From: an uncultured delta proteobacterium
Lineage (GTDB): Bacteria > Myxococcota_A > Polyangia > Fen-1088
Assembly (NCBI GenBank): GCA_963849735.1
Contig: CAWKJE010000016.1
Coordinates: 54,086 to 118,085, forward strand
Direction: 5' to 3'
Length of the DNA: 64,000 bases
Shown here: in pieces, positions 15,287-55,554 of the stretch
Position numbering within the stretch: the first letter of the stretch is position 1
Layout: each line of letters opens with the position of its first letter
The notes under the pieces: generated by a model
Databases searched by the model: none
Told to the model about the DNA's origin: nothing
Seen by the model: only the letters and a program-made list of their open reading frames with translations
Made by a program: the position numbers and the translations under genes

Positions 15287-15536
15287 AAAGCTCCTCTTGC
15301 CGTGACGGATAGAGTCGGGCCAATGGGCCATCGCCTGAAGACACGCCGGGACATGGGATCGCGACATGTTCGTCTCATCTATTGTCAGGACCAAGCAGAA
15401 TTGCCAATCGCCCCGCCCTCGTGGGTGCGGCCGCCCCCCGCTGCCGAGACGTCGCCGCGTGCGGGCCGGACACTCCGCCCACGTGCGTGCGGCCGCCCCT
15501 GCCCATTCACGCGGGCGACGGTGTCTAGCTACCAAG

Positions 15537-38783: not shown

Positions 38784-38787
38784 GGCA

Positions 38788-40047
38788 TCATCCCTCCCCG
38801 ACGAGGCGAGCGAGCAGCCCCGGTTTGACGGCCTCGAGCAGGGCCGAGACATCGCCATCGCGAATAGCGCGCAGGTGCGGCACCAGGTCGAGTAGCTCAC
38901 CCGGCACCTTGCCCGCCAGCACCTGCAGGTCATCGAGTAGGGAATGCTTCAGCTCCGGGTCCCGAGGCGCCTGGTCGAGCAGGCGCGCCAGATCGGAGAT
39001 CGCGTCTTGTCGGGCCCCGAAGTCTGCGGGACGCAGAGCAGGAGAAGTCCCCACCACCACCTTCTCGATCCAGACCTTGCCGCTACCCAGCGCGGCCGCC
39101 TGACTGGTCACCTCGGCGCGCAGCTGATCACGCCCGCCCAGGAAAAGCTCACCGTGTGCGAGGGTCCTGCCGACCAGCTTAACCCGGACGGCCAACGGCC
39201 GGCCGTCCGCCTGCCGCTCGACCAGCTCCGCGAGCTGCCTGCCCACCAGGAACACGACCTCATCCCGGTTGCGGGCCGTGTCGACCGCGACCTCGAGCAT
39301 ATGCCAGCGCACGACGTCGGTGAAAACCCGCTCGATCCCGACGATTTCCCCACCCTCCGCGGTGATGAGCACCGCCCCCCGCGGTCCCGTCTCGCGCACG
39401 TGACGCCCCTGCAGATTGCCGGGGAAGACGATGGGGGGCTGGCGGCTCGGCAGACAATACTCGTGGACGTGCCCTAGCGCCCAGAACTGATACCCGCGAG
39501 CGACCAGGTGTCCCACCGTGCAGGGCGCGTAGCTCCTGTGCGACTCGTATCCCTCGAGGGCGGTGTGGAGCACACCGATGTTCAGCCACCCGGGCACCGG
39601 GTCAGGATAGTGGACGACCAGGTTATCCTCGACCGCGGCCTGCCCGTAACTCTGGCCGTGCAGGGCCACCTGCAGCTCCGGCAGGCGGAAGGTTTCGGGA
39701 CGCTTCTTGCCGAAAACCCGCACGTTGCCCGGCAACAGCAGCCGCCGGGTGACGTCGCTCTGGGCGTCGTGGTTGCCGAAGGCGAGGAAGACGGGGATAC
39801 CTGCCTTCGCCAGCCGTGCCATCTCCTTGACGAAGAAAAGGCCGGTGTTGAAGTCTTTCCATTCCCCGTCGTAGAGATCGCCCGCTATGATCATGAAGGC
39901 CACGCCATCCTCGATGGCACGGCCCACCAGCCCAGAAAAGGCCTCGCGCGTGGCGGAACGGAGCAGATCCGTGGGAGCGTCTCCATAGCCCGCCAGCCCG
40001 GCCAGGGGGCTGTCGAGGTGGATGTCTGCGGTATGGAGGAACTTCAT
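38788..40047 (-). CDS. SbcD/YhaO/Mre11-like calcineurin-type metallophosphoesterase (nuclease subunit)
   Basis: MKFLHTADIHLD...IIAGDLYDG...AFGNHD...LGHVHE are the phosphoesterase motifs I-V. It lies immediately upstream of, and is co-directional with, the AAA ATPase. Confidence 0.75.
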   Translation of the reverse strand: MKFLHTADIHLDSPLAGLAGYGDAPTDLLRSATREAFSGLVGRAIEDGVAFMIIAGDLYDGEWKDFNTGLFFVKEMARLAKAGIPVFLAFGNHDAQSDVTRRLLLPGNVRVFGKKRPETFRLPELQVALHGQSYGQAAVEDNLVVHYPDPVPGWLNIGVLHTALEGYESHRSYAPCTVGHLVARGYQFWALGHVHEYCLPSRQPPIVFPGNLQGRHVRETGPRGAVLITAEGGEIVGIERVFTDVVRWHMLEVAVDTARNRDEVVFLVGRQLAELVERQADGRPLAVRVKLVGRTLAHGELFLGGRDQLRAEVTSQAAALGSGKVWIEKVVVGTSPALRPADFGARQDAISDLARLLDQAPRDPELKHSLLDDLQVLAGKVPGELLDLVPHLRAIRDGDVSALLEAVKPGLLARLVGEG

Positions 40048-40373
40048 GGGGCCTCGGATCAGTTGGCTCACCTTAGCGCCCGGCGCTGACCGCCGTCCAC
40101 ATTCCCACGCGCAGGCCAGCGGGTGAAGGCTGAGCACCACGATCGCAGGACGGCCAGGCTGACGGCGGCAAAATGTGTGCGCTTTGCCCTCGCATCGTCC
40201 TTGCCTATCCCACTGCACATCCGTATAGTACGTGGGTATAGCATACCCGTGGCGGGCGTCGAGGATCTGCGCCGGCAAATCGCGGAATTGGCGGCCAGGT
40301 GGCAGGTTGGACGTGGCGACGACTACGACATTGCCGTGGCCGGGCTGCTCGAACTCGGGTAGACAATGCCGGA

Positions 40374-40955
40374 ATGAAACTGCTTCATTTCGGATGGCTG
40401 GCGCTCGCGGCCTGCGCAACAGGCACAACCGAGGCGACCCCGCCCCGCCTTGCTCCTGCGGTTGCATCGCCGATGGGCATTATCGGCACGGCCGGGCCAT
40501 CCGGCCTGACCGTGGTCGGCGACACCCCTGATCTGCACTTCCGCCTGCTCCTGAGCGGCAATCACGTCGCTATCGGCCATGGCGATGGCAACTTCATCGT
40601 CGACGACATCGAGGCTCAGGTGAGCACGGTGGCGGCGCGCGATATCAGCCCCGCCACCGCCAGCCAGAGCGGAATCGAGCTGCTGCGCACCCATGCGAGG
40701 TGGCAATGCGCACGCATGTCCGAGGCGCTCGGCCACGAGGTGGCGCCGGAAGAGATAGAGATCTTAACATCGGAAAAGATGCCCGCTGCCCTGGTCTGGT
40801 CTGCCGGCGACCTGCTGTACGTGACCGCCGCGTACGACCACAACGTGGTGGCTCTGTCGGTGCGGTCCAAGGCTGGAGTCGACTTGGCCGCCAAGGCCGA
40901 GTATTGGATGGCCTCGCTCTCCGTCTCGCCCTACCCTATCGCATCAGCGCCCTAG
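40374..40955 (+). CDS. Hypothetical lipoprotein
   Basis: MKLLHFGWLALAACATG carries a lipobox. There is no recognisable domain. It sits between the divergent SbcD-like gene and the convergent SNF2 gene. Confidence 0.4.
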   Translation: MKLLHFGWLALAACATGTTEATPPRLAPAVASPMGIIGTAGPSGLTVVGDTPDLHFRLLLSGNHVAIGHGDGNFIVDDIEAQVSTVAARDISPATASQSGIELLRTHARWQCARMSEALGHEVAPEEIEILTSEKMPAALVWSAGDLLYVTAAYDHNVVALSVRSKAGVDLAAKAEYWMASLSVSPYPIASAP

Positions 40956-41020
40956 CGCTCGTCCCCTCTCTCGGAGCTCGGTCGTCGTATTGCACGGGCA
41001 GGAAGACGGTGAAGGTAGAT

Positions 41021-44000
41021 TCATGGACTCTCGGGGCTTTCCTCCTCGACATCGCCTTCTGCCGTGTCCGCGCCGCTGCGACGGATGAGGTCGAGCAGAT
41101 CTTCGCTATCCAGGCGGGCGGCGGCGTCGGCTCCGTCGAGAATGCTGGCGGCGAGCTGACGTTTCTCCTCGTGCAAGGACAGCACGGCCTCCTCGATCGT
41201 GCCACGAGCCACCAGACGGATGACCGTCACGGGGCGCTCTTGACCGATGCGGTGGGCGCGGTCGGTGGCCTGATCTTCGACGGCGGGGTTCCACCAGGGA
41301 TCGAGGTGGATGACGTAGGTGGCGGCGGTGAGATTGAGCCCGGTGCCGCCAGCGCGCAAGGACAGGAGAAACGCATCGGCCTCTCCCGCCTGAAATGCAG
41401 CTACACGCCGGGCGCGCTCCAGTGCCGGCGTTGAGCCGTCGAGGCTAAGAGTGCGCAAGCCAGCCCGGTCGAGGAGCGGTCGGGCGATGTCGAGGAAGCT
41501 GGTAAACTGGCTGAATACCAGGGCACGGTGGCCCTCGTCGCGTAGCTCGACGAGCAAATCGACCAGCGCCGCTAGCTTCGCCGAACCGGCACTGCTGTCC
41601 TTCACCACCAGGCGGGGGTGGCAACACAAGAGCCGCAAGCGGGTTAGCGCAGCGAGAATCTTGATCCGTTGTTGCGCCTCGTCGCCGCCAGTCGCAGCGC
41701 CCGTGGCCAGGCTCTGCAACGCCTCGATGCGCGCGGCTTCGTAAAACCGCCGTTCCAGCGGGCTAAGCTCGATAGTCTGGTTCATCTCGGTGCGCGGCGG
41801 CAGCTCGGGCGCCACCTCGGCCTTGGTCCGGCGCAGGAGGAATGGCCGCACCACCCGGGCCAGGGCGGCTTGGCGAGCGCGGTCGTGGTGGCGCTCGACG
41901 GGCAAAGCAAAGCGCGCTCGGAACTGCTCCCACGAACCGAGCAAGCCCGGGGTCACCAGGCGGAAGATGGCCCATAGCTCGCCCAAGTGATTTTCGATCG
42001 GGGTGCCCGTGAGCGCCACACGGAAGTCGGCCTGCAGATCACGGATGGCCCGGAACCTTTGCGTGAGGGCATTCTTCACCGACTGGGCCTCGTCGACGAT
42101 CAAGGTCGCGAACCTGATGGCGGCCAGGGCTTCGGCGTCGCGCGCGGCGATGGCATAGCTCGTGACCAAGAGATCGCCGTGACCCAGAGCCGCGCACAGG
42201 GCCGCGCGCTCGGGACCGCGGTACACGCGCACCGCGAGCCCGGGCGCGAACTTGGCACTCTCGGCCGCCCAGTTGGCCACCACCGAGGTGGGGGCGATGA
42301 CCAGGGCCGGCCCGAGATCGGAGCGCCGCAGGAGCAGCGCCAAAGCCTGCAGGGTCTTACCGAGTCCCATGTCGTCGGCCAAACAAGCACCGAGGCCCCA
42401 CGTCGCGAGCCGGGCGAGCCAGCGAAAGCCATCCTCTTGGTAGTGGCGCAGGCAGGCCTGCAAGCCCGCCGGCAACACCGCCGCGTCGCCCCGCGCGGCC
42501 TCGATCTTGCCCAGCACGGCACGAAAGGCCGGCACCAGGTCGAGCTGGCGCGGATCCTCCACTACGTCGGCCAACACCGGCGCGGCCAGCAAACCGATCT
42601 CGAGAGCGCCCTGGTTGTCGAACACCACGTCGTCGAGGGCGGCCAGCTTATCGCGCAGATCGTCCTCGATGGCGGCAAAGCGGCGCGGACCCAGCTTCAC
42701 GAAGCGCCGCCCCGCCCGCACCGCGGCCAACAACTCCAACAGCGAAATCTGCATGTCGTCGATCTCTGCCCCACCCTCGGCCCCGAACCAATCGCGCCGG
42801 CGGCTCACCGCGACCTTGAGCGATGTGCGAAAGACCCGATCCACACGGATCTCACCCGCCGGCCACTCGATGGAGCCGAGCTCGGGCAGTCCGCGCAGCT
42901 TGCCCAGCACTTCCAGTGCGCTTCTGTCGTCGCTCACGTCCCAGCACCATGGCCCGCTCGACGTGGCGTCGTCGAGGCCCAACGCCTGCGCCAGGTGAGC
43001 GCCCCGCTCGCGCTCGGCCCCGAGGGGGCGGGGCGAATGCAGGCGTCGCCCATCACGCGCCAGCATGACCTCGGGCGGGCCCTCACCGGGCGCGAAGACC
43101 GGGCCGTCGGCAATGGGGCGCACCACCATCGCTATGCGTAAGCCCGACTCGGGCAGCGGCTCCAACCTACACACGATGGTGGTCGGCGGTTCCACCTGTT
43201 CGCCGCGTACCCCATCGGGCAAGTGCACGTCCAGCGAGTCTTGCATGCGCGGCAGACGGAGCACCAGCTCGTCGACCGCCTCGTTCGGCAGCACCACGGG
43301 AAACTTGGCCATGGCCCCCAAGAGCGCCATAGCATCGGAGCCCAGCAGCGCCAGCACACAAAGGTGGCGCTCCTCGTCCAGCCACACCAGGTGGCGCCCA
43401 TCCTCGACCAAAGTCAGCAGCACCCCTGGATCGACCTCCACCCCGCCCAAGCTGGTACGCAAGCGGAACCCACCCTCCACCTCGTCCAGGGTCAAGGCCA
43501 CCCTCGCCTTGCGTACTGACAACGGGGTGGACCGATCGGCAGCGAACACCCGCGACGAGCCCGCCAAGGCAGCGAGCGCTCGCCAGCCCTGGCGTGGGTT
43601 CAGAGACTGCGAACGCCTGTAGTAGTAGGCGCTTGGCTCTCGGGCATCCATCAACACTTCGAAGACGGCCTGGTCCGCGGGATCGCGACGCACGGCTCCC
43701 TGGTCATCGAGGCTCTCCAGACTCAGGCGCTGGCCTCGCGACCAAGCCCCCCGCTTGCCCAATTTCTGCACGATCGGAAGCACGGATATGCCCTCGGGCT
43801 GGCGCGAGATCTGCCAGATGAGTCGTTGGGATTCCTCGGCCGCCGGAACCGCGACTTGGGCTAGCCGGGAGTCGAGGTGGCCGAGCAAGCGCGACCAGCC
43901 GGGAACTCGCAGTATGGGTGCGAGCAGATCGGCCAGCGCGTCCGCCGGATCGCACAAGGCCGCGCTGATCTCCTCGAGGGCCGTCACCACGTGGACACAG

Positions 44001-45019
44001 GACGAGCGATCGCGACAGCGTTTGCACACGAAGCCGAGCTGGCCGCTGTCCCACGCCGCCAGCCGCACGGTCAAGAAGGGCTGGCCTGCCGAGCTAGTAG
44101 GCACGCCCCCCTCGGAGATGTGCCATTCCCGGTAGCCGAGCTCGGGTGGATCTGCCTGCAGGGTGATCCGGCCGGGTAGGAAAGTCCCCGCCGGGCGCAA
44201 CGGGCATTGGGCAGCCACCTGGTCGCGACGGTCCCGAACCAGCTGCAAGAAGCGCAATAGGTTGGGATCGGAAGGCAAGCGGGCGCGGGCCGTACGTTCG
44301 GCCTGGAGATGCGTCATCGAGGCCAGCACATGGGCCGCCCGGTGCAGGTATGCCTTGGCCGAGGACACCAAGTGCTCAGCCAACTCGGCCCGAAAGAATC
44401 TCGGTGCCGCCACGGTTTTGGCCGTCACCAGCACGGCATCGCGCACGGTCCGAGGCAACTGTTGCGGGGGAAAGCCATAAAAATTGTCAGCCGACGTCGA
44501 TGGGTACGGATCCCCCAAACGCTCGCTCACGCCGTGGCGCTCGCACCACGCCTCGAGGGCCTTGATCTCCGTAGGCGGAGCCAGGATGCTGGGCGAGGCA
44601 GTTGTCTCCGCTGCCAGGCGGCCGCGCTCGGGGACAGGGATGGCGATTTTCGCGAGACCGGTCGCGGGCTCATCGTCGTCAAAGTCGTCGAAGTCGTCGA
44701 GGTCATCGAAGTCATCTGGGTCATTGTGGTCATCGGGCCTGCCGGCGGGGGGCGAGTCGCTGAGCCAGTTCCACAAGTGGTCCCGCACGTTAGCGGCGAC
44801 CTCGGAAGAAAAGCGATTCGCAACCAAGACCTCGGCCTCCTCACGGCACAGGTCCCGGACCTGCCGACACCGCAGTATGGATGAAACCACCTTCACCACG
44901 CGCCTGACCGCCGAGGGCAGCCCGACAAGGAATTCCGCAACAGGAGCGGAGAGCAGAAATTCCTGGCTATCGACATGGAGAGCTGCAGGAATGGCGGCGA
45001 ACGATGTGGGTGCGGGCAT
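41021..45019 (-). CDS. SNF2-family helicase with N-terminal SWIM zinc finger
   Basis: SWIM CxC-Xn-CxH (FVCKRCRDRSSCVHVV). SNF2_N (LADDMGLGKTLQALALL...DEAQSVKN). Helicase_C (LLSLRAGGTGLNLTAATYVIHLDPWWNPAVEDQATDRAHRIGQ). There is an acidic DDF-repeat tract near the N-terminus. Confidence 0.85.
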   Translation of the reverse strand: MPAPTSFAAIPAALHVDSQEFLLSAPVAEFLVGLPSAVRRVVKVVSSILRCRQVRDLCREEAEVLVANRFSSEVAANVRDHLWNWLSDSPPAGRPDDHNDPDDFDDLDDFDDFDDDEPATGLAKIAIPVPERGRLAAETTASPSILAPPTEIKALEAWCERHGVSERLGDPYPSTSADNFYGFPPQQLPRTVRDAVLVTAKTVAAPRFFRAELAEHLVSSAKAYLHRAAHVLASMTHLQAERTARARLPSDPNLLRFLQLVRDRRDQVAAQCPLRPAGTFLPGRITLQADPPELGYREWHISEGGVPTSSAGQPFLTVRLAAWDSGQLGFVCKRCRDRSSCVHVVTALEEISAALCDPADALADLLAPILRVPGWSRLLGHLDSRLAQVAVPAAEESQRLIWQISRQPEGISVLPIVQKLGKRGAWSRGQRLSLESLDDQGAVRRDPADQAVFEVLMDAREPSAYYYRRSQSLNPRQGWRALAALAGSSRVFAADRSTPLSVRKARVALTLDEVEGGFRLRTSLGGVEVDPGVLLTLVEDGRHLVWLDEERHLCVLALLGSDAMALLGAMAKFPVVLPNEAVDELVLRLPRMQDSLDVHLPDGVRGEQVEPPTTIVCRLEPLPESGLRIAMVVRPIADGPVFAPGEGPPEVMLARDGRRLHSPRPLGAERERGAHLAQALGLDDATSSGPWCWDVSDDRSALEVLGKLRGLPELGSIEWPAGEIRVDRVFRTSLKVAVSRRRDWFGAEGGAEIDDMQISLLELLAAVRAGRRFVKLGPRRFAAIEDDLRDKLAALDDVVFDNQGALEIGLLAAPVLADVVEDPRQLDLVPAFRAVLGKIEAARGDAAVLPAGLQACLRHYQEDGFRWLARLATWGLGACLADDMGLGKTLQALALLLRRSDLGPALVIAPTSVVANWAAESAKFAPGLAVRVYRGPERAALCAALGHGDLLVTSYAIAARDAEALAAIRFATLIVDEAQSVKNALTQRFRAIRDLQADFRVALTGTPIENHLGELWAIFRLVTPGLLGSWEQFRARFALPVERHHDRARQAALARVVRPFLLRRTKAEVAPELPPRTEMNQTIELSPLERRFYEAARIEALQSLATGAATGGDEAQQRIKILAALTRLRLLCCHPRLVVKDSSAGSAKLAALVDLLVELRDEGHRALVFSQFTSFLDIARPLLDRAGLRTLSLDGSTPALERARRVAAFQAGEADAFLLSLRAGGTGLNLTAATYVIHLDPWWNPAVEDQATDRAHRIGQERPVTVIRLVARGTIEEAVLSLHEEKRQLAASILDGADAAARLDSEDLLDLIRRSGADTAEGDVEEESPESP

Positions 45020-45282
45020 GGACGCGAAATCCTACGTCCATGGCTAGCACAGGCCACGATGACTAGAATGTAATTCACCTCATCATGTGTATCTGGTGAC
45101 ATCTTCGATCGCGGCCATGGTCGGGAAGTGCGGCACAGCGTCAGGCGCGTCGAAGCCGGTATGAACCGCCACTGCCAGGATGGCCGTCGCGGGATCCCTC
45201 GAGCAGTACGCTACCGAATTGCCGACCGGGTTGCCTCGGCCGCCGGCGATCTCGGCACCCTTGCCGCTATCCCCAATCCGCA

Positions 45283-45678
45283 TCAGCGGTTCGCGAGAGT
45301 GCGAAATCCTTTCCCGCGCAGCAACCGTTGGTCACTGGTCACCAGGGTCAGGTCGTAAGCGGCCGCGCTAGCCGCCAAGAAGCGATCTGCCGGATCGTCG
45401 TGCTCGGCTTGGATGCTCCGGCTATAGAGCGCCACCTCGAAGGTTAGCCGAGCATCGTGCATGGGCACCTTGGCCAGCGCGGCCTCGACCCAATCCCGGG
45501 GGCTGCCCCGCACCGACACCCGCCCCCGCTCGGCCAGCAGCAGGAACTCCCACACGCTGATCGGCGACAGCCACAGCTCCGTCTCGCGAGCAAGCAGCAA
45601 CTGCGCCACACGCCGGGAAAGGTGCTCGGGGGCGAGGTGGCTCCAGATCCAGATGTGCGTGTCGAGGAGCAGCTTCAC
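45283..45678 (-). CDS. vapC: PIN-domain ribonuclease toxin
   Basis: GTG start with a GGGAGG SD. PIN acidic tetrad positions are VKLLLDTHIW (D), WEF (E), DPADRFL (D) and LVTSDQRL (D). It overlaps the upstream antitoxin by 4 nt. Confidence 0.75.
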   Translation of the reverse strand: MKLLLDTHIWIWSHLAPEHLSRRVAQLLLARETELWLSPISVWEFLLLAERGRVSVRGSPRDWVEAALAKVPMHDARLTFEVALYSRSIQAEHDDPADRFLAASAAAYDLTLVTSDQRLLRGKGFRTLANR

Positions 45679-45914
45679 TTGGTCGCCTCCCAGCCGACCA
45701 ACGCACTCGACGGACCAGTTATGTCGTGCGCGATTGCCGCGGTACCCCGCATGTCGCCCAACCAGTTGCGCGTCGCCGGCGGAGGGGTGGGGGGAATGAT
45801 CTCCGCCACCGGCTTGCCAAAGCGAGTGACCTGCAAAGGCCGCCCTGTCCTCCGCACCCGTTCGAGCGCCGCCAGGCAAGTCGCCTTGAACTTCGAAATC
45901 GGCATGCTCTCCAT
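45675..45914 (-). CDS. Phd/YefM-family antitoxin
   Basis: MESMPISKFKATCLAALERVRRTGRPLQVTRFGKPVAEIIPP is a typical Phd/YefM N-terminus. The exact start codon is uncertain. Confidence 0.55.
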   Translation of the reverse strand: MESMPISKFKATCLAALERVRRTGRPLQVTRFGKPVAEIIPPTPPPATRNWLGDMRGTAAIAHDITGPSSALVGWEATK

Positions 45915-46082: not shown

Positions 46083-47237
46083 TCACCCCGCCAGCCGGTT
46101 GCTGTACACGCGCGGCACGCGGGTGTTGATGCTGGTGAGCACCTCGTGCGGGATGGTGTTGGCCCAGGCAGCCATCTCTTCGATGGTGACGCCCGGGCCA
46201 TCGCCTCCTAGTAGCACTGCCTCGTCGCCGTTCCAGGCACTGTCCCAGCCGATGGCCACCATTACCTGGTCCATGCAAATGGTCCCGACCACGGGATAGC
46301 GGCGGCCGCGGATGACGACTTGGGCTTTGCCCGACATGGAGCGCAGGTAGCCGTCGCCGTAGCCCACGGGCAAGGTCACTACCCGGGTCTCGGCGTCGGC
46401 CTGCCATCGGGCGCCGTAGCTCACACTGGCGCCGGGCTGGATCACCTTGAAGTAGACGACCTGGGAGGACCAGCGCAAGGCCGCCCGGACGGGCAGGGTG
46501 CGCGCGATGTGGGGGGAGGGATAGGCGCCGTAGAGCAAGATGCCGGGCCGCACCATGTCCAGCCGTGCCTCGGGTAGCTGCAGCACCGCCCCGGAGTTGG
46601 AGATGTGGCGGGTCGGACAGGGCAGCGAGTGGACGCGGTAGAAATCGACCGTCTCCAGGAAGCGCTCGAGTTGCAGGTGCGCGAAGGAGAGGTCCTCCGC
46701 GTCGGCAGTGGCGAAGTGGGAAAAGATACCCTCCACCTTGGTATGACGACAGCGTAGCGACGCCTCCAACAGTTTGGCCGCGTTGTGCCAGTGCACGCCG
46801 ATGCGCTCCATCCCCGTGTCGACCTTCAAATGCACGCGCGCGGTCCGCCCCAGCGCCGCCGCGCAACTCTCGATGGCGCCGAGCTTGTCGAGCGACGAGG
46901 CGGTAAGTATCAGATCGTGGGCGAGGAAGAGGGGAATCTGCTCACCCACGATGCCGCCCATCACGAGCACCGGCGCCCGCACTCCCGCGCTGCGCAAGCG
47001 GAGGCCCTCTTCGAGGTAAGCAACGCCGAGGCAGGGTGCGCCCAAGCGGTCGAAATGGCGGCCAACCTCTACCAGCCCGTGGCCGTAGGCATTGGCCTTG
47101 AGCACCACGAGCACGGGCACGCCGGTCAGCTGGCGCAAGAGCTGGTAGTTGGCCGTGAGCTGGCCCAGGTCAACGTGCAACGCAGTTGGTCGCGGCCCCT
47201 GCCCCAGCGCGATCGTCGGCTCGTTGATCTCCGGCAT
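46083..47237 (-). CDS. alr: Alanine racemase
   Basis: PLP-binding N-terminus VLKANAYGHGL and a full-length Alr fold. The start is at 47237. Confidence 0.85.
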   Translation of the reverse strand: MPEINEPTIALGQGPRPTALHVDLGQLTANYQLLRQLTGVPVLVVLKANAYGHGLVEVGRHFDRLGAPCLGVAYLEEGLRLRSAGVRAPVLVMGGIVGEQIPLFLAHDLILTASSLDKLGAIESCAAALGRTARVHLKVDTGMERIGVHWHNAAKLLEASLRCRHTKVEGIFSHFATADAEDLSFAHLQLERFLETVDFYRVHSLPCPTRHISNSGAVLQLPEARLDMVRPGILLYGAYPSPHIARTLPVRAALRWSSQVVYFKVIQPGASVSYGARWQADAETRVVTLPVGYGDGYLRSMSGKAQVVIRGRRYPVVGTICMDQVMVAIGWDSAWNGDEAVLLGGDGPGVTIEEMAAWANTIPHEVLTSINTRVPRVYSNRLAG

Positions 47238-47699
47238 GACTGCCCCTGTGTACCACGAGAGCCCGATGGGCGAATTAGGCTTGACGGCCTCTTCGTGCAG
47301 AGTCGCATCGTCGAAGCCTCGACCCGGGCTTCCCCGCGTCCTCCTCTAAGCCCCCATGCGGCGGAGCTGTGCCGCATGGCGCCATGGCTTGCGGCTTGAG
47401 AGCGAGACCAGCAAGTGTCACCATGCCCCTGTCCACGATCGTTCGTAGAGTTGTGCATGGCAAACCTCGCGGCAGGCATCTACGCCATAATGATCATTGC
47501 CCCTACCTCACCGGCCGCCGACTCGGCTTTCCTGGCGGCCGAGCATGGATTTGGGTTACGGTATCCACGGGATCTTCCCAACAGTAGTGGCCGATGCTAT
47601 CGCGGCGGTGGTGGTGCTCGAGACCCACGATCCAGCTGCGGTCACGAGCGTGACCGGGCGGACAGCAGCACGACTGCCGAGGCGTGGTCCTAATAGGCT

Positions 47700-50315
47700 A
47701 TGCTACCTCTGCGCGGAATTCTCAGGCTTTACGACCCGCTCGACGGCGAGCTCGTCCTGATCGCACGCTCCGAATGGTTCTTCTGCCGAGCCGAGAGCGG
47801 ATACCACGAGGTAGATTCCGGAATAGCGATCTGGCGCTTGCGCCAGCTCTCGGGCTACCGGCTGGAGCGCGCGCACACCTTCCTGCAAGAGGCGCGCCTT
47901 CCCGACTTCGATGTCGGGCGGATGTGCCACGTTGGGCTGCACGACTATCGGCCGATCAACATTATCATCGCGGCCATCCGCGACCACCGTGTGGTAGTCG
48001 TGCAAAGAGGGGCAGCGCCCCCCCCCGCCAAGAGCGCCACGGCCGAGCTGCGCGGCCTGGTGGCCCAGATCGACCAGCGCGGCACACTGCTTTTTCAGGG
48101 ACGGCAGTACAAGTTGGTGCTGGCTGGTAACCTCGATCGACTTTCCAGCCGCGACCGATATGAGGTGGTCTCGCAATCCGCGGCCCGCGGCGTGCTAGAT
48201 GGCCTGGCCAAAGAATCACCCGCTTCCGCGCAGGCCCTCGGCCAGGCGAGTGAGAAGATCGGCAAGGACTGGCGTCCCCCGTTTTCGCAGCCCGAAGGCC
48301 TCGTGCTGTTACGACGGATTCCCGTCCCAGCGGCGGCATCCAGGGGCGATGGGCCGGCCATCACGCCCTCGCAGATGAGAGAGATGCTGGAGAAGGGAGA
48401 TCCGGCTGAGCCGACAATTCGCCTGGTCAATGTTGAATCCCCGGTTTTCGTCCCCGGGGTGGAGTCGAACAGAATTTCATATGCCATCGATGGACCGGTG
48501 GCCAAGGTCGCCTCGGTGAAGATGCTCGTGCGCTCGGTGCCGAGCAAGGGAGATCCGGCGGTGGTTCAGACATTGACCATCGATGGGCCCTACGCGGCAT
48601 CGGGTGATCTAGACTGGGACGGCAAGGCGCTTACCCCAGGTGGGTTCATCACCCTCCGGGGAGCGCCGTACGAGATCGCCTTCGAGCTGACTTCGAAGTC
48701 GGGCAAGGTATCCACCAGCAATACGGGCAAGATAAGCTTGGAAGTGCAGGAGACAAAGATCTTGGTCGACGACACGGGACCGCTGTCGGTGGACGACGAC
48801 TGGAAGGCGACGGTGGCTGCCTTCATCGCGGAGCTCGAGAAGAGTGGCATGCCGGGCGACTGCGAAGGCAAAGTCGTCATCGATAGCCCACTCTTCAAGA
48901 CCAACGAAGGTGAGATGTACACCGACATTTCCTTCCTGGCCTACGAAGCGAGCGCTGACACCGGGCCGGCGCTGCCGTTGCTGGCTGCGATCAAGCTCAA
49001 GTCCAAGGACGGTTCCGGCAAACGGTTCGCGCCGGCGCTGGTCGGGACGCGCCTCTTGTGGGACTTCCAGCTCGAGACATCGAGTGAGCTCGATGCAGCG
49101 CTGGGAACCCGGGGCGTAGCGCCCCCAGCTAAGACCTTCATGAAGAAGGTCGGCGCGTACGAAGAAGCGGCGACGCAGCCCAAGGGGGCGTCCGCGCACC
49201 TGAAGGTGGGCGGATTGCGGGCCAAGTCAGAGGACCGCGCACGGGCCGGACGACAGTGGCAGGCGGGCGGCGATTGGACTATGACGGCGCCCGACCACCG
49301 GGATTGGGCGGCATTCACGGGCTGCGGCGCCAGCGCATCCGACGCGGTCGCCGATTCCGCGGTCTACTTCAGCGCCGGACGGATGGCCGGCGACACGTTC
49401 AAGGTGCGCGCGGTCGTCGACGTGGACGAGAGATTCGACGTGGTCGACGACGCTGCCCCTTACAGCGCGCCGCCGGCGAGAGTATCGAACGTCATCAAGA
49501 TCGTCGTCTGGCGGCGAGTGGCGATTGTCGGAAACTGGATCGTGGGCACGACCACTACGCCGGTCACCATCCCGCCCCTGACCGCCGAGTACAAACGCGC
49601 GGCCATGTTGATCGAGCCGGCACCCGGGGTGGTCCCGACCGATATCGAGGCGACTTGGATCAAGGCCTATCAGGTGACGGTCGACGCCTACGTGAACGAC
49701 GAAGAGGCCTTCGTGGACAAAGCGTTGGCGCGTGACTCGCAGGGATGGCCCGTCAGATACCTCGATTTCATGGAGTACTGGGAGAAGGACAAACCCGATG
49801 CCGGCTTCTTCGGCGAGCTTTGGGAGCGCATCAAGACATTCTTCGGTGGCGCCGACGAGCAAAGCTATAAGGAGAAGTGCGAGAAGCATTGGTTGAAAGT
49901 AGTGAAGCAAGTAACGCGTGGCATGGCGATCCCGGACAACGGCATTACTGCTATCAAGTTCGGTCGTGTAGGTCCGCACAACCAAAATCCTAGCCCAAGC
50001 AGCTATACGGCTGGAGTCGCTCCGGCGATTGCTGGAGTGACGACTCGGACGAAAGCCGTGTTCTTTCAGTTCACGCTTGGGGCTGACACCAAGACCTTCA
50101 TCCATGAGGTAGGCCACACGCTGTTCCTCGCGCACGCTCCTGGCCATTTCCAGCCACCTAAGCAACCCGACGGGTACGTGCCCGAGGCGCACGACAAGGA
50201 TCAAGTCTGTCTCATGTCGTACCATCCCAATAAGATGCATCTCTGCGGCCTATGCCTGCTCAAGCTCGGTGGCCGCGACTACCGGAAAATCAAGAATGAC
50301 GGAACGCTCCTGTAG
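47700..50315 (+). CDS. Hypothetical 871-aa cytoplasmic protein with C-terminal HExxHxxxxxH (metzincin-like spacing) motif
   Basis: No signal peptide. C-terminal FIHEVGHTLFLAHAPGH followed by a Cys-containing tail (CLMSYHPNKMHLCGLC). I recognise no other domain. GC is lower than the flanks. Confidence 0.5.
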   Translation: MLPLRGILRLYDPLDGELVLIARSEWFFCRAESGYHEVDSGIAIWRLRQLSGYRLERAHTFLQEARLPDFDVGRMCHVGLHDYRPINIIIAAIRDHRVVVVQRGAAPPPAKSATAELRGLVAQIDQRGTLLFQGRQYKLVLAGNLDRLSSRDRYEVVSQSAARGVLDGLAKESPASAQALGQASEKIGKDWRPPFSQPEGLVLLRRIPVPAAASRGDGPAITPSQMREMLEKGDPAEPTIRLVNVESPVFVPGVESNRISYAIDGPVAKVASVKMLVRSVPSKGDPAVVQTLTIDGPYAASGDLDWDGKALTPGGFITLRGAPYEIAFELTSKSGKVSTSNTGKISLEVQETKILVDDTGPLSVDDDWKATVAAFIAELEKSGMPGDCEGKVVIDSPLFKTNEGEMYTDISFLAYEASADTGPALPLLAAIKLKSKDGSGKRFAPALVGTRLLWDFQLETSSELDAALGTRGVAPPAKTFMKKVGAYEEAATQPKGASAHLKVGGLRAKSEDRARAGRQWQAGGDWTMTAPDHRDWAAFTGCGASASDAVADSAVYFSAGRMAGDTFKVRAVVDVDERFDVVDDAAPYSAPPARVSNVIKIVVWRRVAIVGNWIVGTTTTPVTIPPLTAEYKRAAMLIEPAPGVVPTDIEATWIKAYQVTVDAYVNDEEAFVDKALARDSQGWPVRYLDFMEYWEKDKPDAGFFGELWERIKTFFGGADEQSYKEKCEKHWLKVVKQVTRGMAIPDNGITAIKFGRVGPHNQNPSPSSYTAGVAPAIAGVTTRTKAVFFQFTLGADTKTFIHEVGHTLFLAHAPGHFQPPKQPDGYVPEAHDKDQVCLMSYHPNKMHLCGLCLLKLGGRDYRKIKNDGTLL

Positions 50316-50316
50316 A

Positions 50317-51525
50317 ATGAGTAGCTGTAGCGCGACTCGCTGCTCTGGACATCGTTCGGCCATGGTGGCACTTGCGGCATTTGTATTAGCACAGGGGTGT
50401 CATGGTTGTGCGAGCGGGAGCAATGTATTTTCCGCGTCGGCGGTGAACAGTGAACAATCGAGGGTCATCATGCGACGTTTTGGGCTTGCCATCCCTGGAG
50501 TAGCGACTTCTTACGCAATAGATGATGAGGCGATCTACGTGCTCGGCACCTCTGGCAGCCGCAATCAGCTCGTAACAACGGAGTACTACGAGTCCGGCGT
50601 GGAACCCCACGAGCTGCGCTCTTTCAAACCGTCTTTCTGGGGCGTGGACGTGCCCGACGGGGCGGAGCTCTTTGCCCCAACCGGCGGAATTACGCCGGAA
50701 AACGCACGCCAGTACTGGGTAGGGTGGCTGCTGGGCCAGCGGGTTTCCATGCTCGCGCTGATGCAAAAGCACCCGGTCGAAGCGGATCTGGCCGCCGACG
50801 AGACCGCCCTCTTTCCCCCGGTCATGGACAAGGCCGGGGTGGCCGCGCTCTATTCCTGGCGGCCGGTGGCTCAAGGGGTTGCGCTCTGGCGGCGCCTGTT
50901 CACAGGCGCGGTCAAGACCAAACCTTCAGTCACCACCGAGGCACTGACCGAGATACCCGGGCGGCCGGTGGTGTCCGTGGTCGGGGCGATTCCGGGGGAG
51001 CCGACACAGCACGCCATCATCGGATGGGCGGAAGACACGGCCGCCGGCGCCGTGCTGGGCATCGCGGTCGTGCGTCCCGACCAAATACGCGTCATGCGCT
51101 CCGACCCTATCCCAGGGTTCATCCCATTCGTCCACCAGCGCCCCGGGATCTGGGCGTCGGCGCCGCCGACCGCCGAACGCTATGAGTTGAAGTTGGCGCT
51201 GGAGTCCCGCGAAGAGCCCCACCGCTACCAAACCGCGCAGCTCTCCGTCGCTGCGCAGTCAGGCGAGCGGATGACCTCGCTCCAGGCCGACCTACCCACC
51301 GGGCAACTGCATGCGGCGGCCTACGACTACGCGAAGGACCACGTCGGGGCCTTTGCCAACCAGGAATTTCTGACCAAGGACGGCCGGCTGTGGAGCGGTC
51401 CGCCATTCAGGTTGACGAAGCAGGGAGTCTCGCTCGATGATCCGCTCACCATCCTGATGACCTACACACAAGCCTACTGGGGCGAGCGGTCCGCCGACGG
51501 TGGGCTGTCGTTTCATATACTCTGA
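50317..51525 (+). CDS. Hypothetical protein (403 aa from ATG 50317), partner of the HExxH protein
   Basis: It starts 2 nt after the upstream stop (TAGAATG). The Cys-rich N-terminus (MSSCSATRCSGH...VLAQGCHGC) is possibly a weak lipobox. I recognise no domain. GC is low. Confidence 0.4.
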   Translation: MSSCSATRCSGHRSAMVALAAFVLAQGCHGCASGSNVFSASAVNSEQSRVIMRRFGLAIPGVATSYAIDDEAIYVLGTSGSRNQLVTTEYYESGVEPHELRSFKPSFWGVDVPDGAELFAPTGGITPENARQYWVGWLLGQRVSMLALMQKHPVEADLAADETALFPPVMDKAGVAALYSWRPVAQGVALWRRLFTGAVKTKPSVTTEALTEIPGRPVVSVVGAIPGEPTQHAIIGWAEDTAAGAVLGIAVVRPDQIRVMRSDPIPGFIPFVHQRPGIWASAPPTAERYELKLALESREEPHRYQTAQLSVAAQSGERMTSLQADLPTGQLHAAAYDYAKDHVGAFANQEFLTKDGRLWSGPPFRLTKQGVSLDDPLTILMTYTQAYWGERSADGGLSFHIL

Positions 51526-51547: not shown

Positions 51548-51875
51548 TACCGACCACGGGGATAACGGCCCAGAATGACCGGAGCACCGCACGCCGGCGT
51601 TGCGCAGGCGAAGCCCCTCTTCGAAGTAGTCTACGCCGAGGCGCAGCGCGCCACTCGGTAGAAATGGCGCCCACCTCCACCAGCCTGTGGCCCTAGGCAT
51701 TGGCCCTCAACGCCACGCGCACCGGCACCCCGGTCAGCTGACGCACAAGGTAGTACTCGGCCGCAAGCCGCTCCGAGTCATCGAGCAACGCGACAGGTCA
51801 CAGCCCCTGCCCGAGCACGATCGCCGACTCGTTGATCTCCGCCATTACCGTTTGTGCACCACGAGGTTGCCCCGA
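51548..51875 (-). pseudogene. Decayed duplicate of the alr 5' end (first ~95 codons plus about 30 bp of upstream sequence)
   Basis: It aligns base-for-base (with indels and an in-frame stop) to 46945-47270. The conserved regions include the GVDYFEEGLRLRNAGVR vs GVAYLEEGLRLRSAGVR region and the start-codon context gatctccgccatTACC vs gatctccggcatGACT. Confidence 0.65.
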
Positions 51876-52044: not shown

Positions 52045-54030
52045 ATGAAGATGAAGTCCGCTGTGCTTGCGATGGCGATGGCATCCGGCGCAATAGCGTC
52101 AGGAATCATGCCCGGCGCGTGCGGCTCCGGGACCACGGGCCAAGGAGGCAACGGGGGAGCAGGGGGATCGTCCCAATCCGGTGGCTCTTCCGGTAGCGGT
52201 GGGAGCAAGAGCAGCGGCGGAAGCGCCAACAGCGGCGGGAACAGCGCCAGCGGCGGGGCCACCAGCCCGTCGGGTGGCGGAGCGGGAGGGAGCGCCGGCA
52301 GCAGCGGAACGGGAGCAACCTGCACCGCCACTGCCGACGTCAAACCCTGCGGCGGCAGTGTGACGGGAACCTGGACCGTCACGTCGGGGTGCCTGCAGAT
52401 ATCGGGTCCGGTAAACGCCCAGGCAGTCTTCGGTCTTACTTGCCCGACGGTGCAAGTGACCGGAAGCCTTCAGGTAACGGGAACCTGGACCGCCAACTCC
52501 GACACCACTTTCACGGACAACACAACTACGACCGGCAGCGAGCAGATCACGCTGCCAGCCGGCTGCCTGCTCCTCTCCGGAACGACTACCACATGCGCAA
52601 AGATAGTTCAGGAAATGAGAAGCACATACGATACGGTATCCTGCACGGACGCCACGGGCGGAGGTTGCACTTGTTCGGCAACCGTCAATCAGCAGGGTGA
52701 GATGGGTCTGGTAGTGGGCTCCGCAGCCGCGCAGACGAGCGGCAATTACACAACGTCCAGCAACACCATCGCGAATTCCGGGGACTCGAACACCTACTCG
52801 TACTGCGTCGCGAACAACACTCTGACCGTGACCCCGGTTGATCCGTTTTCGGCGACCGGCACCATCGTTCTGCAGCAAGGCACCGCTGGCACTAAAGGAA
52901 GCGGAGGAGCAGCAGGAGGAGGAAATGGTGGCAGCACTGGAGCGGCCGGGACGAGTGCCACCCATGCTGGTGGCGCGGGCGGCACGTCAGGCGCTGGCGG
53001 CGTAGCCGCCAGCGGCGGTTCCTCCGGTGGTGGCGGGGTCGCCCAGAGAAGCAGCGGGCCATGCGACATCTACGCGGCCGCCAAAACCCCCTGTGCCGGA
53101 GCCTACAGCATGGTCCGCGCGCTCTCCAGCACATACACTGGCCCTCTGTTTCAGGTGCGGAGTGGAAGCTCGACAACGAACACGGGCACGGGCGGCAGCA
53201 CCCAAGATATCGCAATGACCACGGACGGCTACGCGGATACTTCCAGCGTGGATTCGTTCTGCTCTGGCACGACGTGCACCGTCTCGAAGCTCTATGATCA
53301 GTCCGGCAACGCCAATGATCTCGTGACCGGGACCGGAGGTCCCGCGGGCAACGGAACCCGCTCGGGGGACACTGACTACGAGTCGAGCATTACGACCAAA
53401 GGCCAGATAACGGCGGGAGGCCACAAAGTCTACTCGCTCTACATGAATGAGTACGAGGGCTATCGGACCCCGCTCAAGGCCGTGGGCAAAGGCATGCCCA
53501 CCGGCAATGCCGCGGAGGGCATCTACGAGCTCGCCGACGGCACTCACTTCGGCGGCGCGTGTTGCTGGGACTTCGGCGATGTTTCTCCCGATCCCAACAC
53601 GTATGTCACCATGAACACTATCTTCTTCGGCACCGGCTACTGGGGTTCCGGCGCGGGTAGCGGGCCATGGTTCATGGGGGACTTCGAGGGCGGTGTCTGG
53701 GCCGGAGGCTCGGGAGCGTCGAGTGCGAACAATCCCCAAAGCCCGTCCATGGCCGTGCCTTTTGCCCTCGGCATCCTCCACACGCCGGTTGGGCAATATG
53801 AGCTCAGAATGGCCGATGTGCAGAAAGCCTCTGATCTGACCACTGCATATAATGGCACTTCGCCTAAAGGGTGGGGTAATGCAGGAGGAATCGGCCTGGG
53901 TATCGGCGGTGACAACAGCAACAACTCGTACGGAACCTTCTACGAAGGCGCCATCACCAACGGCGCCCCGTCAGAAGCAACCGACCTCCTGGTGATGAAG
54001 AACATCCAAGCGGTGGGTTACTCGAAGTAA
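52045..54030 (+). CDS. GH54-like alpha-L-arabinofuranosidase lipoprotein, paralog of 13304..15286 (same N-terminal 8-Cys domain, no CBM42)
   Basis: Lipoprotein signal MKMKSAVLAMAMASGAIASGIMPGAC. A G/S linker and a ~190-aa Cys domain homologous to that of the other paralog. GH54 catalytic domain: GPCDIYAAAKTPCAGAYSMVRAL...CCWDFGDVS...GSGPWFMGDFE...TFYEGAITNGAPSEATD. Confidence 0.75.
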   Translation: MKMKSAVLAMAMASGAIASGIMPGACGSGTTGQGGNGGAGGSSQSGGSSGSGGSKSSGGSANSGGNSASGGATSPSGGGAGGSAGSSGTGATCTATADVKPCGGSVTGTWTVTSGCLQISGPVNAQAVFGLTCPTVQVTGSLQVTGTWTANSDTTFTDNTTTTGSEQITLPAGCLLLSGTTTTCAKIVQEMRSTYDTVSCTDATGGGCTCSATVNQQGEMGLVVGSAAAQTSGNYTTSSNTIANSGDSNTYSYCVANNTLTVTPVDPFSATGTIVLQQGTAGTKGSGGAAGGGNGGSTGAAGTSATHAGGAGGTSGAGGVAASGGSSGGGGVAQRSSGPCDIYAAAKTPCAGAYSMVRALSSTYTGPLFQVRSGSSTTNTGTGGSTQDIAMTTDGYADTSSVDSFCSGTTCTVSKLYDQSGNANDLVTGTGGPAGNGTRSGDTDYESSITTKGQITAGGHKVYSLYMNEYEGYRTPLKAVGKGMPTGNAAEGIYELADGTHFGGACCWDFGDVSPDPNTYVTMNTIFFGTGYWGSGAGSGPWFMGDFEGGVWAGGSGASSANNPQSPSMAVPFALGILHTPVGQYELRMADVQKASDLTTAYNGTSPKGWGNAGGIGLGIGGDNSNNSYGTFYEGAITNGAPSEATDLLVMKNIQAVGYSK

Positions 54031-54315: not shown

Positions 54316-55554
54316 ATGACCATGCTCGGCTTGTCGCAATGTGAGATGGCGATGCAGGACGGTTCACGTGCCCCACGTTCACAGCGGCTTGCGCTGCGCA
54401 GCATTGCGCCTTTGCTCGGATTCTGCCTGGCCTTGGGTTGCGTCGACCTCACCCCTCCGGCAGCGTTGGTGAAGTACCGCAATGGCGCCGGAGGCGGAGG
54501 GTCGGGAGTAGCCGGGGACAGCGCGGCGGGAGGGGCGGGAGCGGGTGCTGGAGCCGGGGCGGGTGCTGGAGCGGGGATGGGGACGGGGGCGGGCGAAGCC
54601 GGTGGAGGGCCGGCCGGGGGTGGGGGAGCTGGCGGGTTGGGCCCATCGTCTGGGCTGGGAGGCGGTTCGCCGGATACGGACGGTGCGGCGGCGGGAGGGG
54701 CGATTGACGGCAACAGCCAGCCCGGCGGCGGGGGCAATCCCGGTGGGGGCGCAACGAAGCAGGATGGAGCAGCGGGGGGCGCGGCAGCGGGGGGCGCGAC
54801 ACTTGGGGCGGGCGGGGCTCCGGGCACGGGCGGCCAGTCTGTGGCGAGCGGTGGGACTAGGGCCATGGGCGGCAGCTCGGGAGCTGCGGGAGCCACGGGC
54901 AAGGGCGGCACAACGGGAAAGCTCGATGGCTCGGCGGGCGCCGGCGGAGCGGTGGCGTTCGATTGCGCTCAGGCGATCAAACCCACGGGCGGCCTCGTCA
55001 CCGACTTCACCGATTGGAATGCGACGACCAAGACTTGGGGGGGCACGAGCGCGCTGACCGGCAATGTCTGGCAATACGGCAACTCGGGCACCAGCGTGGC
55101 CATCGCCCAGGTCGAGGGAACCCCTCCCGGCTTGCACATGGGCGGGACCATTCCCAACGGCGCATACTACGGCGGGGTCGGGATGACCTTCTATTCCTGC
55201 GTTACAGCGGCCTCATTCAGCACCATCTCGTTCAAGGTCTACGGCAGCGCAGCAGGCTGCTCGATCGCGCTCCAGCTTGACACCTACGACGAGTGGCCGG
55301 TCGAGAGCACGCCGCCGGGAGGGTGCAAGGGGGACGGGGGCACCAGCTGTTACCAGTTCCCCGCCAAATCCGGTGTGATAGACTTTTCGTCCGCGGTGGC
55401 GGCGCCGGGCACGACGGTGTCGGTGACCCTCTCGTCCCTGAGCAACTGGTCGGCGAGTGTGGCGGGTCAGATCGTCGGCTTGCAGTGGCAGTTCACCCCC
55501 AACGGTGGGGCATGCACGCCCGACGTGACCTTCACCGCTATCGAGTTCCAGTAA
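54316..55554 (+). CDS. Putative carbohydrate-binding lipoprotein (G/A-rich linker plus C-terminal beta-sandwich CBM-like domain)
   Basis: Probable lipoprotein signal (...IAPLLGFCLALGCVD). A long G/A-rich low-complexity region. The C-terminal ~190 aa has a CBM-like aromatic pattern (WNATTKTWGG...NVWQYGNSG...GLQWQF). The start codon is uncertain (54316-54352). Confidence 0.45.
   Translation: MTMLGLSQCEMAMQDGSRAPRSQRLALRSIAPLLGFCLALGCVDLTPPAALVKYRNGAGGGGSGVAGDSAAGGAGAGAGAGAGAGAGMGTGAGEAGGGPAGGGGAGGLGPSSGLGGGSPDTDGAAAGGAIDGNSQPGGGGNPGGGATKQDGAAGGAAAGGATLGAGGAPGTGGQSVASGGTRAMGGSSGAAGATGKGGTTGKLDGSAGAGGAVAFDCAQAIKPTGGLVTDFTDWNATTKTWGGTSALTGNVWQYGNSGTSVAIAQVEGTPPGLHMGGTIPNGAYYGGVGMTFYSCVTAASFSTISFKVYGSAAGCSIALQLDTYDEWPVESTPPGGCKGDGGTSCYQFPAKSGVIDFSSAVAAPGTTVSVTLSSLSNWSASVAGQIVGLQWQFTPNGGACTPDVTFTAIEFQ

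Follow-up and report, generated by a model that had tools for sequence, protein, structure and literature searches.

Metallopeptidases delivered by a type VI secretion system (T6SS) and acting in the periplasm are exemplified by the C-terminal domain of VgrG2b, paired with PA0261, in P. aeruginosa, and by Tpe1, paired with Tpi1, in A. baylyi; their immunity proteins are periplasmic proteins or lipoproteins (PMC6899460). In such Tpe-Tpi pairs the effector has no Sec signal and is toxic only in the periplasm, and the adjacent immunity protein, which in part of the lineages is a lipoprotein, needs its signal peptide (PMC6899460). The same predicted logic, a leaderless zinc metallopeptidase followed by an exported immunity protein, was recognized in two adjacent open reading frames, ORF1 and ORF2 (positions 47700-51525), of a 64,000-nucleotide stretch from an uncultured delta proteobacterium (assembly GCA_963849735.1, contig CAWKJE010000016.1, positions 54,086 to 118,085, forward strand), here called the window. 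The window pair is most likely an orphan T6SS effector-immunity cassette. That ORF1 is a cargo effector acting in the target periplasm, and ORF2 the lipoprotein that confers immunity to it, is considered probable. The features of the two genes are as follows.

47700-50315, plus strand: ORF1, predicted T6SS cargo effector of 871 aa with an ATG start (ORF list, homologues, hydropathy).
47700-48389, plus strand: N-terminal module of ORF1, aa 1 to ~230, swappable (partial matches P0024-P0042 cover only aa 1 to ~230/310).
48414-48767, plus strand: immunoglobulin (Ig)/FN3-like beta-sandwich, aa 239-356, first part of the "core" common to the whole family.
48768-49877, plus strand: conserved middle region, aa 357-726 (alignments A1 and A5; AlphaFold2, AF2, model).
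49878-50312, plus strand: C-terminal region, aa 727-871, predicted to be a metzincin-type catalytic region (profile A8 against PDB).
50103-50135, plus strand: zinc-binding motif HEVGHTLFLAH, aa 802-812 (H802, E803, H806, H812; invariant H/E/H/H in alignment A5).
50190-50255, plus strand: H831, C837-L-M839-S-Y841 (Met-turn with Tyr) and C849-G-L-C852, all invariant in A5.
50317-51525, plus strand: ORF2, predicted exported lipoprotein and cognate immunity protein, 402 aa, or 403 codons with the stop (tblastn, remote homology).
50317-50400, plus strand: ORF2 signal peptide with a lipobox-like end, aa 1-28, ALAAFVLAQG-C28 (Kyte-Doolittle, KD, hydropathy 2.79; PROSITE PS51257-style pattern).
50524-51522, plus strand: predicted all-beta, propeller-like body of ORF2, aa ~70-402 (AF2 pTM 0.74, 28 strands).

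A preliminary description of this DNA, made from its letters alone, had quoted from the large protein an HExxH motif with a third His at metzincin spacing but lacking the usual Gly, and a Cys-rich tail. Both reading frames and both quoted motifs are real, FIHEVGHTLFLAHAPGH being aa 800-816 and CLMSYHPNKMHLCGLC aa 837-852 of ORF1. Searched singly, ORF1 and ORF2 matched nothing in Pfam, PADLOC, NCBIfam or PDB sequences, and the early statement that the large protein holds no recognizable domain is thus correct for single-protein searches but not for a family profile, which reaches the metzincins. The profile of the last 147 residues gave solely metzincins among the PDB matches listed, with serralysins best (E 1.3e-4), followed by ADAM/ADAMTS, matrix metalloproteinases (MMPs), snapalysin and archaemetzincin. 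The serralysin alignment spans the zinc motif through the Met-turn SLMSY (HMMER), and distant family members match Reprolysin_4/5 and the NCBIfam serralysin model. Because the profile matches metzincins, the zinc motif and Met-turn align, and distant members match Reprolysin_4/5, the ORF1 C-terminus is read as a predicted metzincin-type catalytic site, in agreement with the spacing noted at first.

The third zinc-binding His lies six residues after the second (H812), as in metzincins, and the Met-turn CxMxY is present in 161 of 163 motif instances, most often 25 residues past the third His. The Gly expected at position 8 of HExxHxxGxxH is missing throughout the family: the position, Phe809 in ORF1, is F in 140 of the 163 instances, Y in 12, M in 5, L in 3 and G in 1. 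Ten residues (H802, E803, H806, H812, H831, C837, M839, Y841, C849 and C852), together with a few Trp, Pro, Gly and Arg, are invariant in the 58 divergent homologues of alignment A5; the zinc motif, H831, C837, M839, Y841, C849 and C852 are near-invariant across the 163 instances, and the family signature reads HExxHx[LM]F[LM]xH…H…CxMxY…CxxC. Such invariance in 58 divergent homologues argues that the signature did not arise by chance. One His and three Cys (H831, C837, C849, C852) form a putative second, structural metal site, which, with the Phe-for-Gly exchange and the Tyr-bearing Met-turn, would be specific to this family. ORF1 ends ~20 residues past the CxxC.

Serralysins (M10B) resemble ORF1 in that motif, spacer length, Met-turn and Tyr align (HEIGHALGLSH…SLMSY against HEVGHTLFLAH…CLMSY). 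Unlike them, ORF1 has no RTX beta-roll or type I secretion signal (no Pfam or NCBIfam match); 86% of its family has Phe in place of the Gly, an extra H…C…CxxC is invariant, and the similarity covers just ~55 residues. Archaemetzincins (M54; HExxHxxGxxHCx4CxMx17CxxC) also have the Met-turn in a Cys-rich segment (CxM … CxxC), a likeness that suggests a second, structural metal site in ORF1. The match to them is, however, marginal (3zvs_A, E 0.17) and confined to the zinc motif, and the M54 pattern is not that of ORF1, where Ala rather than Cys follows H812, the spacing is CxM-x9-CxxC and the biological context is another. Tpe is a thermolysin-like gluzincin with Glu as third ligand (PMC6899460), whereas ORF1 has His812 and a Met-turn; no VgrG2b entry was among the 60 matches listed in the PDB search with the catalytic profile. 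The architectures also differ, since in VgrG2b the Tpe is fused to VgrG, whereas ORF1 would be separate cargo that brings its own N-terminal module together with an Ig-like domain and a sizeable middle region. The immunity proteins, too, have neither size nor fold in common: PA0261 is said to depend on disulfide bonds, and ORF2 is a predicted 330-aa beta-propeller. T6EC12, an HExxH T6SS effector (bioRxiv 10.64898/2026.09.28.754971), was considered as a member of the same family and rejected on its HELSH motif and Asp/Glu ligands.

ORF1 has no signal peptide, as first described: the best 10-residue Kyte-Doolittle mean in its first 45 aa is 1.29, and no transmembrane-like 19-mer is found by hydropathy. 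Its N-terminal module, modeled by AF2 as alpha/beta (pLDDT ~70), is elsewhere joined to LysM, PG_binding_1/2 or OmpA-like regions in place of the protease, and is a candidate delivery or loading domain. A profile of the module found zero relatives in Pfam or PDB, and the module showed no similarity to the neighbor genes of the distant operons described below. The middle region holds a low-confidence insert in the AF2 model (aa 496-549), and a structural search with this region gave no match.

A word-indexed search retrieved ~22 full-length relatives of ORF1 (46-69% identity) and ~20 further proteins that match only aa 1 to ~230/310 and then continue with PG_binding_1/2, OmpA-like or other regions. 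Sources of the close homologues are metagenomes and metagenome-assembled genomes (MAGs) of Polyangia and Myxococcales; a scan of genomes with alignment A1 gave 7 loci. An exhaustive profile search reached 932 representatives of 50%-identity clusters at E<=1e-3, mostly from soil Acidobacteriota and Myxococcota, 183 of them at E<=1e-30, and a further search, now with the broad alignment A5, added no new ones. What is conserved is the core, which starts at the Ig-like domain (aa ~239) and extends to the C-terminus, and the parts N-terminal to it differ. Among 40 sampled relatives these were OmpA-like in 10 and PG_binding_1 in 7; LysM, Ig repeats and a recurrent "ARTAHDLxHVNRL" N-terminus also occur. 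Relatives with OmpA-like, PG_binding_1 or LysM modules have no signal peptides.

The partner was correctly placed right behind the first gene, a single base separating the ORF1 stop (TAG, 50313-50315) from the ORF2 ATG at 50317. Other early statements about it needed correction: its length is 402 rather than 403 aa, its "Cys-rich N-terminus" is a signal peptide with a lipobox-like C28 and not a metal-binding tail, and a 402-aa predicted beta-propeller is not a "small" protein. The Foldseek comparison that had been proposed was run on the model of this partner and retrieved just generic 7-bladed propellers, the clathrin terminal domain among them, at TM 0.34-0.42. Across loci, partner N-termini combine a charged n-region with an h-region of strong hydrophobicity (KD 2.2-3.2) and a Cys that never varies. 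The PROSITE-style lipobox fits the window copy, L013, L006 and L008 and fails for the AHGC and ARGC variants; ORF2 is probably lipidated at C28.

The public gene call for the partner begins at M52 (351 aa, P0043) and omits 50317-50469, that is, the signal peptide and lipobox; the same N-terminus is missing in P0044-P0047, in P0050 and in the L002 gene call. Since tblastn alignments of the partner begin at residues 11-23, its N-terminal 51 residues are conserved as protein, and since this holds in all 8 independent loci, the public start is too short.

tblastn placed the partner immediately behind the effector gene at all 8 loci examined in this way (the window copy, L001; L002/L010; L006/L014; L008; L011; L012; L013), with a start that often overlaps the effector stop or falls within a few tens of bases of it. 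Behind the effector gene of 4 more close-clade loci, a gene of 354-384 aa on the same strand matches the partner by size, not by sequence comparison. For more distant relatives, a set of 82 loci was used, 80 from a metagenome scan with the distant subfamily and two from Acidobacteriota genomes. Of these distant loci, 58 have at least 1.2 kb of downstream sequence, and six-frame searches with hidden Markov models (HMMs) detected an exported protein encoded there in 45. The HMM of this downstream family matches the window partner at E 1e-10, and hhalign of the two partner families gave a probability of 96.9% (E 1.8e-10, 320 columns). Judged from these profile comparisons, the distant downstream family is a remote homologue of ORF2, and the pairing of effector and partner is thus ancient and extends across phyla. 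Adjacency and parallel divergence of the two genes are seen across Myxococcota and Acidobacteriota. Observations that the preliminary description would have counted against a toxin-immunity pair were looked for: neither protein shows homology to a housekeeping family, the HExxH is never lost, and the homologues are linked elsewhere too.

The same description had proposed a check of homologue neighborhoods for T6SS genes, and linkage to vgrG, DUF4123 and DUF2169 was indeed found. In L011, a Polyangia MAG whose effector is 52% identical to ORF1, a divergent vgrG lies ~320 nt upstream (HMM E 4e-194; phmmer to the PDB VgrG 7q5p, E 8e-175). On the P0016 contig (55% identical), the genes for effector, partner, VgrG and DUF6484 follow one another in that order and in the same direction with gaps of 20-130 nt, and this vgrG carries Phage_GPD, Phage_base_V and Gp5_trimer_C. 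In L008 (59% identical), a gene for a DUF2169 adaptor is found 5 kb upstream. By a rough estimate, not computed and assuming at most 10 vgrG per ~8,000-gene genome, the probability that a randomly chosen gene would have a vgrG no more than two genes away at 2 of 11 loci is on the order of 1e-3.

In the distant loci, clustering of the neighbor genes gave a recurring order: vgrG, DUF4123, a ~256-aa gene, a ~95-aa gene, a ~250-aa LysM/PG_binding gene, the core gene and a ~500-aa gene with a signal peptide. Six-frame HMM searches found DUF4123 in 22 of the 82 loci, or 16 of the 39 whose upstream sequence amounts to 3 kb or more, and vgrG in 4 of the 82; Pfam confirmed both, DUF4123 at E 1e-28 to 1e-37. 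L093 contains VipA/VipB (sheath) and a ClpV-like ATPase besides (Pfam). Modular T6SS effectors (MIX, FIX, RIX, WHIX; DUF4123/DUF2169) are like the ORF1 family in sharing an N-terminal module in front of varied, cell-wall-directed C-termini, and the order vgrG, DUF4123, effector, immunity gene is common to them and to ORF1 relatives. Unlike them, the ORF1 N-terminal module matches none of those Pfam families. The arrangement typical of T6SS pairs, a leaderless effector with an adjacent immunity gene whose product is localized to the compartment of the toxin, is predicted here as well.

Several side observations concern this family and its operons. Relatives of ~1,600-1,830 aa (P0097, P0102, P0103, P0120, P0121, P0124, P0127, P0132, P0138, P0144, P0148, P0151, P0181, P0182 and P0192) hold two core copies, the second with a degenerate motif, HE[MLIF]SHxxY[LM]xH, and possibly a pseudo-protease domain. 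At L006 10001-11593 (= L014), downstream of SNF2/DUF3670, Eco57I methyltransferase and HTH-Peptidase_M78 genes, a 530-aa effector homologue lacks its N-terminus: it begins at the position corresponding to aa 344, and the partner beside it is intact. This copy may be decaying or may have had its N-terminus replaced. In distant operons (L015:7051-7809, L045:83-838, L097:4674-5312) the gene right before the core gene encodes a ~250-aa protein with LysM and PG_binding_1, and the Polyangia proteins P0024-P0029 have an ORF1-type N-terminal module followed by a LysM-like motif and PG_binding domains. The LysM/PG_binding protein may be a co-effector or a wall-targeting accessory, fused in some cases and separate in others. 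Between the DUF4123 and effector genes, 33 of the 82 distant loci have a gene of a ~150-300-aa family with the N-terminus "MLVIR.EQL.AF…" and no Pfam match (L015:6018-6716, L070:329-1102, L072:3729-4631 and 30 other loci); its product is a candidate for an additional adaptor or chaperone.

Some results weigh against assigning the pair to a T6SS. HMMs for vgrG and DUF4123 detected no such gene in the window, and the linkage is thus one of the family and not of the window itself. A T6SS gene is nearby in just 3 of ~11 distinct close-clade loci, the rest being in ordinary chromosomal contexts. The N-terminal module has no Pfam match to MIX, FIX, PAAR or any other known T6SS loading domain, and 5 of the 9 partner N-termini retain the Cys but do not fit the lipobox pattern. 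The first three of these observations favor delivery by another route, such as an extracellular contractile injection system (eCIS), outer-membrane vesicles or cell lysis, of what would still be an antibacterial toxin with an exported immunity protein. Myxobacteria possess several contact-dependent killing systems, which also counts for such a route. Against it, the vgrG that adjoins two close loci is of the T6SS type (Phage_GPD and Gp5_trimer_C, with T6SS VgrG1 as the best PDB matches), DUF4123 and DUF2169 are T6SS-specific adaptor families, and no eCIS-type sheath, tube or baseplate genes occur among ~100 loci. Another route is therefore considered improbable.

A role in the producer itself, where the leaderless protease and a lipoprotein regulator would remodel the envelope in housekeeping or development with no antagonism, finds some support in L006, L099 and L101, which keep the pair beside the same 205-aa, Kelch and ABC genes, suggesting vertical inheritance, and in the peptidoglycan-binding modules on relatives. 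The distribution is patchy, however, and the window copy is an insertion beside an alr remnant; the N-terminal modules are swapped in the manner of polymorphic toxins, the family is linked to T6SS genes, and one can hardly envisage regulation in cis between two proteins whose predicted locations in the producer are separate compartments. The chances of such a role are rated as poor. A T6SS protease effector directed against proteins of eukaryotic hosts or prey, with ORF2 as an unrelated co-transcribed lipoprotein, would suit the carriers, predators and saprophytes of the soil. The typical substrates of metzincins are proteins, and many of these enzymes serve as virulence factors. But conserved adjacency and parallel divergence with an exported partner are the hallmark of an immunity gene against an envelope-acting antibacterial toxin, and the OmpA-like, PG_binding and LysM modules on relatives point to bacterial cell walls, which makes an anti-eukaryotic role very unlikely. 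T6SS linkage, modular N-termini and conserved pairing together disfavor both of these explanations.

The preliminary description had left open a toxin-immunity or a defense pair; the former is supported by the T6SS links, the signal peptide on the partner only and the adjacency across phyla, and the latter is not. A two-gene anti-phage system, with the metallopeptidase as abortive-infection effector and the partner as sensor or regulator, might be suggested by the SNF2/SWIM helicase (DpdE/ZorD matches), PIN-Phd pair and AAA_27 ATPase beside the window pair and by the SNF2/DUF3670, Eco57I and HTH-M78 genes upstream in L006, but it is scarcely credible and, as a cytoplasmic pair, unsupported, because the partner is a predicted exported lipoprotein (signal peptide and lipobox) ill-suited to intracellular sensing and PADLOC-DB gave 0 families for either protein at E<=0.1, and most homologous loci have no defense genes nearby, the family being linked to vgrG, DUF4123 and DUF2169 instead.

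As a T6SS effector-immunity pair, the two proteins would work as follows. ORF1 would be made in the cytoplasm with no Sec signal and loaded on a VgrG spike or an adaptor, probably via its N-terminal ~230-aa module. The T6SS would fire it into neighboring Gram-negative cells, where the metzincin-type zinc endopeptidase would cleave an envelope substrate in the periplasm, be it a protein associated with peptidoglycan or a peptide. The OmpA-like, PG_binding and LysM modules of relatives are an argument for the peptidoglycan layer as its site of action. ORF2 would use Sec/Lol export to become a lipoprotein facing the periplasm, and its beta-propeller would bind and block incoming or sister-cell effector, thus protecting the producer and its kin. 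A bolder and rather doubtful proposal is that aa 1 to ~230 are an undescribed Myxococcota T6SS loading domain swapped among cell-wall-directed effectors, that the Phe-for-Gly, His/Cys3 metzincin core kills by proteolysis of outer membrane-wall tether proteins and not by cutting peptidoglycan, and that the propeller lipoprotein is a dedicated protease inhibitor.

T6SS effector-immunity pairs are well known as a kind of system, and the present one is for that reason useful rather than surprising; its protein families are undescribed. None of Pfam, NCBIfam and PDB has an entry for the effector family, its variant zinc site, the family of propeller immunity proteins or the N-terminal module, and a literature search for metzincin and T6SS yielded nothing pertinent; a paper on conflict systems (Kaur et al. 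2020, PMC7159879) proved to have no bearing on the pair. ORF1 is possibly the first T6SS effector of the metzincin clan, the known periplasmic T6SS metallopeptidases being gluzincins. A large unnamed family thus gains a testable function, as T6SS metzincin effectors, along with a dedicated propeller-lipoprotein immunity family. If this is confirmed, antibacterial effectors would be extended by a new enzymatic class, and with it would come a new pair of protease and inhibitor and possibly a new delivery domain. Public partner gene calls, which drop the signal peptide, can be corrected.

The surroundings of the pair in the window include the following features.

46083-47237, minus strand: intact alr (alanine racemase; Pfam Ala_racemase_N and Ala_racemase_C), flanking gene divergent from ORF1.
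51587-51848, minus strand: decayed duplicate of the alr 5' end, a pseudogene remnant just downstream of the pair (direct repeats D1/D2/D9).
13304-16162, minus strand: low-complexity-linker gene.
52045-54030, plus strand: low-complexity-linker gene.
54316-55554, plus strand: low-complexity-linker gene.

The remnant corresponds to 46977-47240 over ~265 nt, including ~40 nt of upstream sequence, at 78-83% identity and a spacing of 4608-4610 nt, and its alignment contains an in-frame TAG and frameshifts. An arabinofuranosidase gene comes after it. This decayed duplicate downstream of the pair supports the early view of an insertion, here between alr and the arabinofuranosidase gene, and suggests that the cassette arrived together with, or recombined through, an alr gene. 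The "foreign composition" first claimed is real but just mild, with GC of 0.61-0.64 for the pair against ~0.655 for the window and GC at third codon positions (GC3) of 0.74-0.77 against 0.80-0.87 for neighboring genes. In the Polyangia loci L006, L099 and L101 the pair occupies a different, mutually syntenic site, and the window copy therefore looks like a relocated or horizontally acquired orphan cassette. A promoter and terminator scan gave background levels.

The block from 35.3 to 51.9 kb, which ends with alr and the pair, breaks up arabinose and hemicellulose genes. Within it, 35319-45879 on the minus strand resembles a defense island between arabinose-utilization genes. It contains a 1204-aa AAA_27/SMC-like ATPase, two small ORFs, a PIN-Phd toxin-antitoxin pair, a RES fragment called in L001 and a 1332-aa SNF2 helicase that bears a SWIM-like CxC…CxH and has very strong PADLOC matches to DpdE (E 6e-232) and ZorD.

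The 265-aa and 639-aa genes at 10507-13223 (plus strand) were considered as part of the system and rejected, with shared Polyangia synteny and only weak TPR matches; in the window they lie 35 kb from ORF1/ORF2. Pairs of ~265-286-aa and ~603-639-aa genes occur near the effector pair in L099 (8732-11417), L101 (7828-10536), L008 (4025-6741) and L018 (891-3563). The two ArabFuran-catal (arabinofuranosidase B) genes of the window and a neighboring ORF have long Gly/Ser/Ala-rich linkers past their N-termini, and these low-complexity linkers account for many spurious overlapping ORFs on both strands.

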